A DNA stretch of 64,000 bases from Thermoproteota archaeon (lineage in GTDB: Archaea > Asgardarchaeota > Njordarchaeia > Njordarchaeales > Panguiarchaeaceae): NCBI GenBank assembly GCA_024720975.1, contig JANJXX010000003.1:85543-149542 (forward strand). Reading direction: 5' to 3'. Shown here in pieces: positions 39,619 to 41,010 of this stretch. Each line of letters begins with the position of its first letter. Position 1 is the first letter of the stretch. The position numbers and the translations under genes are program-made. The notes under the pieces were generated by a model. The model had not been told where the DNA came from and did no database searches. It worked only from the letters and a program-made list of their open reading frames with translations.

Positions 39619-41010
39619 CTATAATGTTTCTATTAGGACCTGTTGTTTTGGACCAATTTCCGGTCTCCAACCATAACTGAAAACTATATTCTCACCGCTG
39701 CGGGCTAGGTTTCTTTTTATGAGCTCCTTTTTCATCGTCTCAAAATCAGGCATGGACTTTGTGTAGATTGGTTTTGCTCCCCATATAACGTTCAAGTATC
39801 TTGAGGTCCTCTTAGAATTTGCAAAGCCGTATACAGTGATTTTTGGTCTAAACCTCACTATTGCCAGCACGGTTCTACCATATGTCGTATACACTGCTAT
39901 TTTGGCGTTGATCATATTGGCCAGTGCTACTAATCCCCTGTTAAATTTAACGTACGTTGGATCATCCTTATCCGCTTTTAATTCACTGAGCTCGATATGT
40001 TCTTCTGCTTCACTAGCTATCTTCGCAACGGTTCTGACTGCATTTATGGGGTCATTACCTATAGCAGTTTCGCTACATAGTATGACGCCATCAAAACCTT
40101 TCGCTACCAAATTTGCGAGAATTACTGCATCACTTCTCTTTATCTTTGAGTTGAAGACTAAAGACTCTAACATTGGAGGTACAACTAAAATTGGCTTTAG
40201 GGTCTTCAGGGCTACTCGAATGGCCAAATCTTCTAGGAACATATCCGAAATAGGTCGTTCCTCCTCGACTAGCATATTTTCGATATTTTCCTTTGCAAAA
40301 ACGATTCCATCGCTTTTTTCGGCGATTGCTTCTAGCTTGGGTAGAGCTTCAGCATTTTCAATTCTAGCCAGAATACGAACATCTTGTTTATACGTGTCTA
40401 GAAAACTTCGAACAACTTCTAGATCACTTGGATCAAGAACATCGGGTATCATTAAAATATCTATGTCTCTTTTCATCAGAAAATCTATTATTTTCTCATC
40501 CTCACGAGTTATAGGAGGTAAGTTTAAGAGGGATTTTCGGCGAAGAGCTATGCGGGCGCTTGATCTAAGAATACCCCCATCTATTACTGTCCCCTCAACT
40601 TCAAAGTCTTTTATATCATCTACACGAATAGCGATCCTACCGTCAGCAAGAAGTATTCTATCATTTGGACTTATAATCCTGGTTGGAATCTCATATGGTA
40701 CCGGAATCACGTGAGTTTCCTCACTTCTTTCAGTGCCAAATTCTAAGACAACTTTTTCTCCGGGATCCAGACGCGTCTCCGGCATATTACCTATTCTCAG
40801 CGTGCGCCCCTTGATCTCTGCAATGATGGGTATAGGCTCCTCTAGTTCATCCTCAATTTTTCTTATGGACTTTATTATCTGATCCTTCTCGTCTAGTGAT
40901 CCGTAGACCATATTTATCCTAAAGGCGGAGACTCCAGCTTTTATCATTTCATATATCGTTTTTAGGTTGCTTGATGATGGACCTAATGTTGCAGCTAACT
41001 TTATTTTCAT
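39619..41010 (-). CDS. Pyruvate kinase homologue with degenerate active site
   Basis: PK domain order and landmarks are kept (ATLGPSS, LADG.I, MLES, ETA.G..P, YTTYGRT, WG), but catalytic motifs are altered. Confidence 0.85.
   Translation of the reverse strand: MKIKLAATLGPSSSNLKTIYEMIKAGVSAFRINMVYGSLDEKDQIIKSIRKIEDELEEPIPIIAEIKGRTLRIGNMPETRLDPGEKVVLEFGTERSEETHVIPVPYEIPTRIISPNDRILLADGRIAIRVDDIKDFEVEGTVIDGGILRSSARIALRRKSLLNLPPITREDEKIIDFLMKRDIDILMIPDVLDPSDLEVVRSFLDTYKQDVRILARIENAEALPKLEAIAEKSDGIVFAKENIENMLVEEERPISDMFLEDLAIRVALKTLKPILVVPPMLESLVFNSKIKRSDAVILANLVAKGFDGVILCSETAIGNDPINAVRTVAKIASEAEEHIELSELKADKDDPTYVKFNRGLVALANMINAKIAVYTTYGRTVLAIVRFRPKITVYGFANSKRTSRYLNVIWGAKPIYTKSMPDFETMKKELIKRNLARSGENIVFSYGWRPEIGPKQQVLIETL

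Follow-up and report, generated by a model that had tools for sequence, protein, structure and literature searches.

What can a pyruvate kinase (PK) homologue do once the residues on which the PK reaction depends have been replaced and the replacements are held by selection? This question is raised by a gene on contig JANJXX010000003.1 of a hot-spring Asgard archaeon of the order Njordarchaeales, of which a stretch of 64,000 nt was analyzed (in the following, the window). The coding sequence occupies positions 39619-41010 on the minus strand and encodes a protein of 463 amino acids (aa), P0001, which starts with ATG and contains no internal stop. With a confidence close to but short of an even chance, we read P0001 as a neofunctionalised PK-fold protein that is probably still catalytic and that would act together with the Fe-S dehydratase encoded next to it at the serine/pyruvate node.

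The three-domain PK fold of P0001, composed of the A barrel, the inserted B lid and the C-terminal alpha/beta domain (C), is complete in the predicted model. Pfam assigned residues 2-325 to the PK barrel (PF00224, 154 bits) and residues 361-450 to PK_C (PF02887, 54 bits), both above the cut-off. The AlphaFold2 (AF2) model, calculated from a 73-sequence alignment, reached a pLDDT of 94 and a pTM of 0.92, and Foldseek matched it to solved PKs over the whole chain, with template modelling (TM) scores of 0.88-0.93, root mean square deviations of 2.2-3.3 Å and E-values of about 1e-46. Identity to these solved PKs is 23-26%, with sequence E-values from 1e-47 to 1e-38. The description in the earlier note of a full-length PK homologue with an intact A/B/C layout and no stops is thus borne out by Pfam and by the model. 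The score for the NCBIfam pyruvate kinase equivalog TIGR01064 was 248.7 bits and did not reach the cut-off of 306.4, and every NCBIfam PK subfamily model likewise stayed below its own cut-off. A match of residues 176-237 to Pfam HpcH_HpaI (E 0.0018, 18 bits) was below the cut-off, and weak matches to this family also occur in some canonical PKs, namely in P0013 and in 28% of the nearest Atlas PK cluster. A search of the ESM Atlas with P0001 returned ordinary PK clusters only.

The catalytic motifs were compared with those of canonical PKs, 29 of them from related genomes and 68 from a representative library. In P0001 the motifs read RINMVYG, EIKGRTLR, PDV, ARIE, VFAKENIE, VPPMLES, IKRSD and CSETA, and every change that had been listed in the earlier note was present; the following window positions are all on the minus strand. 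RINMVYG (40900-40920; canonical RxNFSHG) keeps Arg31 and Asn33, carries Val35 for Ser and Tyr36 for His, and is invariant in the PK-like clade. EIKGRTLR (40795-40818; canonical DLxGPxxR) has Glu65 for Asp, retains Arg72 and has Arg69 as found in the canonical PK of the lineage. In ARIE (40357-40368; canonical AKIE) the catalytic Lys is replaced by Arg216 and the metal ligand Glu218 is kept; this Lys is present in 68/68 canonical PKs, and Arg in 5/5 members of the PK-like clade (alignment A3). VFAKENIE (40279-40302; canonical MVARGDLG) differs by Lys240 for Arg, Glu241 for Gly, Asn242 for Asp and Glu244 for Gly. It is followed by the segment ERPISDMFLED (40228-40260), which has a 4-residue insertion compared to canonical PKs (alignment A1) and in which 9 of 11 residues are clade-invariant according to the invariance map. 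VPPMLES (40162-40182; canonical ATQMLES) carries Pro278 at the position of the proton-relay Thr, with Val in some orthologues, and Pro279 for Gln, while CSETA (40063-40077; canonical SGETA) keeps Glu314. In the C domain, TTYGRT (39871-39888) matches the consensus of the canonical T..G.T loop, which we take to be the effector phosphate loop of PK; it is retained, with T375, T376 and G378 invariant. Two of the changed positions are not specific to P0001: in the canonical PK of the same lineage, Ser76 is already replaced by Ala and Pro116 by Arg (RLNFAHG, DIPGRGPR). As a further diagnostic change we considered the lid lysine (rabbit Lys206), which was rejected: its conservation across canonical PKs reaches only 71%, and the canonical PK of the lineage has Val there.

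Altogether, canonical PKs show a conservation of 85% or more at 65 positions. Changes were found at 20 of them in P0001, which is far beyond chance, and 45 are kept. The positions of K→R216, D→N242 and G→E241 are each 100% conserved in the 68 canonical PKs, and that of T→P278 is 99% conserved. We take these residues to correspond to the phosphoryl-transfer Lys269 (Lys269/270), the Mg ligand Asp295, Gly294 and the proton-relay Thr327 of rabbit/yeast PK. In PK, the backbone of Gly294 binds the substrate carboxylate, Thr327 takes part in the relay that protonates the enolate, and Glu271 and Asp295 are the Mg2+ ligands. In the place of the Mg site, P0001 keeps one carboxylate (Glu218) and has Asn242 for the other, and does not retain the set of two carboxylates and Gly294. 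The 45 retained positions are chiefly structural Gly, Pro and Asp residues, together with R31, N33, R72, E218, R292 and E314; among the retained residues are presumably the counterparts of Arg72, Asn74, Arg119, Glu271 and Glu363 of rabbit/yeast PK. R31, N33 and R72 of P0001 are invariant in all 73 aligned sequences. The replacements are mostly like-for-like (K→R, D→N, R→K, D→E, E→D), and E65, E241, E244 and E260 are new acidic residues that are invariant in the clade.

Maximum-likelihood analysis of 34 sequences (LG+C20) recovered the PK-like clade as monophyletic (support 100/100) and placed it within the PK radiation of the order, where its sister group is formed by the canonical PKs of families f1/f2 (support 100/99). 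The stem of the PK-like clade measures 1.23 substitutions per site and that of its canonical sister 0.10, a difference of about 12x. From the sister position and the long stem it follows that the gene is a lineage-specific duplicate of the Njordarchaeales PK that has diverged asymmetrically. Mean pairwise identity is 0.66 within the PK-like clade and 0.65 within the canonical sister group; the divergence slowed after the initial burst. Comparing paralogue with paralogue, we observed that the catalytic segment 168-338, the most conserved part within canonical PKs, is the most diverged one, with 31% identity compared to 45-49% in the N-terminal part of the barrel and in the lid. Within the PK-like clade, conservation peaks in the rebuilt RGDLG-equivalent loop (229-253), the most conserved stretch of the protein; the second of the two top windows comprises residues 64-78, where EIKGRTLR is located. 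Segment 251-261, which holds the 4-residue insertion and directly follows the loop, is largely conserved. Invariance in the clade was found for 13 of the 20 replaced canonical positions compared to 39% overall (Fisher p = 0.018), and 47% of the positions in the lid domain are invariant, more than in any other domain. At the level of sequence, this pattern is that of a pocket which was re-tooled and afterwards maintained, not of an abandoned site: the catalytic half-barrel underwent a burst of change, after which strong purifying selection kept it fixed.

The gene is rare. A word-indexed search of 5.8 billion proteins found PK-like orthologues at 79, 71, 63 and 52% identity, and scans of genomes and metagenomes added further copies; the same altered motifs were present in 8/8 orthologues (about 50-79% identity). 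Orthologues with intact motifs, which according to the earlier note would point to strain-specific decay, were sought, and none was found: all, down to about 50% identity, share the changes. When 1.84 billion representatives at 50% identity were searched exhaustively with a HMMER profile of the clade, a single cluster carried these motifs, and the next-best match was the canonical PK of the same lineage. Joint replacement of the Lys, the Asp and the Thr was not found outside this cluster among the top 150 matches, one of which (P0043) has Ala at the Thr position alone. For close pairs the ratio of non-synonymous to synonymous substitution rates (dN/dS) was about 0.05 at a dS of about 0.22, with 60 synonymous and 12 non-synonymous differences; comparisons with the 71% and 50% orthologues are saturated at synonymous sites, and the close pairs alone are informative. 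Contigs from four independent hot-spring metagenome studies carry the gene with no indels, and the strain of one independent hot-spring run differs at 9 sites (6 synonymous, 3 non-synonymous), none of them within the motifs. The gene is under strong purifying selection, as had been supposed from its open frame, and since all orthologues share the motifs at a dN/dS of about 0.05, the changes are not strain-specific decay.

A link to the neighboring serine dehydratase, likewise raised in the earlier note, was supported by conserved synteny. The stop codon of the dehydratase gene and the start codon of the PK-like gene are separated by 6 nt (TAG aatact ATG; 41011-41016, minus strand). In four related loci (L033-L036) the gap is 0-3 nt between the listed open reading frames (ORFs) and 3-12 nt depending on the start codon chosen. 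This tight coupling suggests that both genes are on one transcript. The dehydratase, P0002 (41017-42510, minus strand, 497 aa, with the ATG at 42498 as a possible true start), is a fused beta-alpha [4Fe-4S] L-serine-dehydratase paralogue according to Pfam (PF03313 and PF03315), an alignment with PDB 4rqo and an audit of conserved sites. The GPSSSH motif, the cluster cysteines C356, C404 and C415 (C..C-x10-C), GCQAE, CDP and VE.PC..RN are all present and are conserved across the PK-linked dehydratase clade, and the few deviations are mostly common to the canonical paralogues of P0002. The score for the equivalog TIGR00720 (127.6) was below the cut-off of 345.1; for this reason the substrate could differ from L-serine. 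The first gene of the three-gene cluster (42647-43117, minus strand) encodes a small metal-binding CxxCxxCC protein of 156 aa (PF03692), and the same family is found upstream in L033-L036 and on contig C64 of the same-genus genome G003. The order CxxCxxCC, dehydratase, PK-like gene, with a gap of 3-6 nt between the last two, is kept in every locus with enough flanking sequence (L033-L036 and G003 contigs C64/C59), and the outer flanks of the cluster differ between loci. For P0008, a PK-like protein, and P0176, a dehydratase, the longest contigs have an identical length (9324), a hint at synteny short of proof. Orthologues of P0002 form an identity ladder of 77, 68 and 61%, parallel to that of the PK-like gene, and both occur in the same 2 of 5 genomes of the genus; the other genomes have dehydratase paralogues at 38-48%.

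Upstream of the dehydratase start an A/T-rich TATA-like box is a candidate element that was spotted by eye only. A sigma-70 promoter scan at the locus gave 11 compared to 10.5 in shuffled sequences, with a model that is not applicable to archaea, and an Rfam scan of window positions 38000-45000 gave nothing meaningful. Among the sequencing runs listed for the locus there was no RNA run. Upstream of the cluster, at 43151-47277, we found a malic enzyme gene and a Zn/Mn-type ABC transporter that consists of an ABC-3 permease, an ATPase and a divergently transcribed ZnuA-like binding protein, a neighborhood that is not conserved at related loci. On its other side, also on the minus strand, 38372-39345 encodes a 213-aa protein that weakly matches ribosomal L13e over residues 36-87 and has a long C-terminal extension; it directly abuts a gene for a 110-aa tRNA-binding (Trbp111-like) protein, and 36393-38258 encodes a 621-aa STAND-type NTPase with an N-terminal nSTAND3 match and an apparent glycine-rich membrane hairpin near the C-terminus. 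Public taxonomic labels for this lineage are inconsistent: near-identical DNA (P0173, 99% identical to P0002, and L031) is assigned to Korarchaeota in one case and to Njordarchaeota in the other.

The genome of the window (G000) comprises 1.36 Mb in 29 contigs and is 81% complete by markers. By Pfam six-frame search and tblastn, the PK-like gene was the only PK-family member found in it. The earlier note had suggested looking for a canonical pyk or ppdK elsewhere in the genome: in this assembly no canonical PK, PEPS/PPDK, enolase or ApgM-type phosphoglycerate mutase was found. A canonical PK is present together with the PK-like gene in G003. As both copies coexist there, the PK-like gene is a true paralogue and not a simple replacement. 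Two other genomes of the genus have the canonical PK only and one has neither. G000 does contain five loci for 2-oxoacid:ferredoxin oxidoreductases as well as PGK and fructose bisphosphate (FBP) aldolase/phosphatase. The enolase gene of a G003-like strain is located 3.3 kb downstream of the PK-like gene; for this block, taken from downstream of the cluster through a 457-aa ORF, counterparts in G000 were found for the three-gene cluster only, inside a 150-kb contig. Because the genes are partly clustered in relatives, one missing or deleted block could account for several of the absences; alternatively, the trunk from 3-phosphoglycerate to pyruvate is genuinely absent from this small genome. 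A check for SerA (TIGR01327) returned a short 2-hydroxyacid dehydrogenase below the cut-off in 5/5 genomes of the genus.

Several related observations were made in the order. A 600-aa protein with a weak match to PEPCK_ATP (about 50 bits; L051:3516-5318 in G004 and L052:4359-6158 in G001) is 72-81% identical across 9 of 13 other order-level genomes, and its gene adjoins enolase and ApgM (G004), enolase (G002) or the canonical PK (G001, G005). It was not found in G003 or in the incomplete assembly of G000, the two genomes with the PK-like module; as this anticorrelation rests on two related genomes, we regard it as a lead. In G007, a 0.9 Mb genome of the same order, L026:1300-2292 encodes a truncated 330-aa PK relative that keeps DLPGP, AKIE and ARGDLE; its N-terminal RxNFSHG region is gone, AGTGFLKS replaces ATQMLES and the C-terminal part is shortened. 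This may represent another type of odd PK within the order, independent of the PK-like clade. The canonical Njordarchaeales PKs (L019, L020, L023, L024) carry DIPGRGPR and RLNFAHG at the monovalent-cation/phosphate site, i.e. Arg for a near-universal Pro and Ala for Ser, which suggests that they are K+-independent with a built-in positive charge.

What, then, does P0001 do? We infer that it no longer carries out the textbook reaction (phosphoenolpyruvate (PEP) + ADP → pyruvate + ATP), because the phosphoryl-transfer Lys has been exchanged for Arg, the Mg ligand Asp for Asn, the carboxylate-site Gly for Glu and the enolate-protonating Thr for Pro or Val. The conserved lid would still close over a pocket that holds two phosphate-binding arginines, Asn33, Glu218 and Glu314 together with the new acidic residues E65, E241, E244 and E260. 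Since the phosphate-binding arginines, one metal ligand and the lid are kept and the new acidic residues are invariant, we read P0001 as a ligand-binding, probably catalytic enzyme. It would be metal-dependent, with a new three-carbon acid as substrate, and would either supply the substrate of the dehydratase or use its product. Phosphotransfer to or from serine/phosphoserine or glycerate/phosphoglycerate would be one candidate reaction, enolate chemistry on pyruvate another. An amino acid substrate might be bound by the new acidic pocket residues through its ammonium group, and the Arg in place of Lys recalls the enolate-stabilising arginines of class II pyruvate aldolases. As a further, quite improbable extension, P0001 and the dehydratase might form a new two-step route from (phospho)serine or (phospho)glycerate to pyruvate, in which P0001 would perform the phosphotransfer and the dehydratase the dehydration/deamination, so that enolase and PK would be bypassed. 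In G000, no enolase, ApgM, canonical PK, PEPS/PPDK or PEPCK-like gene was found, while PGK and FBP aldolase/phosphatase are present.

Several points weigh against a catalytic P0001. A non-catalytic ligand sensor would be expected to conserve a remodelled pocket just as well, the exchange of a metal ligand (D→N) and of the catalytic base (K→R) are classic inactivating changes, and the geometry of the pocket is deduced from motif homology alone. In addition, only about six species-level lineages of the gene are known, which limits the comparative power, and our search found no longer, fused forms joining dehydratase and PK-like protein, although this is weak evidence. The sequence by itself cannot separate a catalytic from a regulatory role. 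The main rival reading, with chances clearly below even, is that P0001 is a non-catalytic pseudoenzyme, i.e. a metabolite-binding regulator or scaffold (a sensor of pyruvate, PEP, a nucleotide or a sugar phosphate) that controls or stabilises the co-expressed Fe-S serine dehydratase. The loss of Lys, Asp and Gly at fully conserved positions, the retained effector loop and the tight coupling and common distribution of the two genes agree with such a role, strong purifying selection fits binding as well as catalysis, and a PEP-centred catalysis is hard to place in a host genome in which no enolase or other PEP-handling enzymes were found. However, the substitutions are mostly conservative and coordinated and come with new invariant charged residues and an insertion, which does not resemble random loss; the most conserved domain is the lid, whose main known job is closure over substrates; and literature searches gave no precedent for a PK-fold regulator of L-serine dehydratase. 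Of the earlier note's verdict, 'probable pseudoenzyme', the loss of residues essential for the ancestral PK reaction stands, while the verdict as such is not established and several of these points fit a re-tooled pocket better.

That P0001 still works as a PK with an unusual active site, as the sole PK of G000, is unlikely. It is true that no other PK-family gene was found there, that the equivalents of Arg72, Arg119, Asn74, Glu271 and Glu363 are kept within a whole three-domain fold and that K→R preserves the positive charge. Against this, four residues that are conserved at 99-100% in the 68 canonical PKs are all replaced, the score stays below the NCBIfam equivalog cut-off, a canonical PK coexists with the PK-like gene in G003 and no enolase was found in G000 that could make PEP. 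Mutation of the catalytic Lys in yeast or muscle PK lowers kcat by orders of magnitude, which also weighs against ordinary PK activity. Finally, many lost canonical residues in an 81%-complete metagenome-assembled genome might indicate a decaying copy (incipient pseudogene) or an artefact of assembly or annotation. The frame is intact in all copies at a dN/dS of 0.05, orthologues as distant as about 50% identity still show the same altered motifs, the gene was recovered indel-free from contigs of four independent studies and the AF2 model is highly confident; decay is so improbable that we regard it as effectively refuted.

PK is among the most uniform enzymes of central metabolism, and we found no description of a remodelled, selected prokaryotic paralogue. 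The metabolism of Njordarchaeales is deduced almost wholly from annotation, and automatic pipelines probably call the PK-like gene 'pyruvate kinase', because the Atlas clusters carry automatic 'pyruvate kinase family' names. Such mislabelling would wrongly complete glycolysis in genomes such as G000. If P0001 is catalytic, the PK fold has been recruited to new chemistry beside an oxygen-labile Fe-S dehydratase; a regulatory P0001 would, as far as our literature search shows, be the first archaeal pseudoenzyme with a PK fold to be described. In either case, the three thermophile genes are a small, expressible and testable system.

The protein can be compared with several known systems. Our literature searches found no report of a prokaryotic or archaeal PK paralogue with a remodelled and selected active site, no PK-fold partner or regulator of L-serine dehydratase and nothing relevant on Njordarchaeales PK. 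The nearest concept is an in-silico survey of Drosophila, in which predicted inactive paralogues of carbohydrate-metabolism enzymes persist despite lost active-site residues; they are mostly testis-restricted, and six fly PK genes are listed (PMC11836677). The concept is the same as for the PK-like gene, while the fly paralogues are eukaryotic and unrelated in origin. The solved PKs that we compared (E. coli PykF 4yng/1pky, M. tuberculosis 5ws9, S. aureus 3t05 and G. stearothermophilus 2e28) share the whole-chain fold with P0001 and differ in their catalytic Lys, the Mg-binding Asp, the Gly before this Asp and the Thr, which are replaced in P0001. Class II pyruvate aldolases of the HpcH/HpaI type and other members of the PEP/pyruvate TIM-barrel superfamily are barrels in which acidic residues coordinate a divalent metal and a pyruvate enolate is stabilised, Arg instead of Lys being essential. 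They offer a lead by functional analogy only, as the match of P0001 is below the threshold and its PK-specific B lid and C domains are retained. The closest relatives are the canonical Njordarchaeales PKs of families f1/f2 (e.g. P0024, L020, L023, L024), a sister clade at about 36-38% identity that has the same A/B/C layout and a similar length and shares the Arg at the Pro116 position of DxxGPxxR. In these proteins, unlike in P0001, RLNFAHG, SFV, (A/S)KIE, MVARGDLG, ATQVLES, PTRAE and SGETA are intact, and their genes do not adjoin a serine dehydratase but lie beside the PEPCK-like gene in G001 and G005. The 4-residue insertion and the 12x longer stem belong to the PK-like clade alone.

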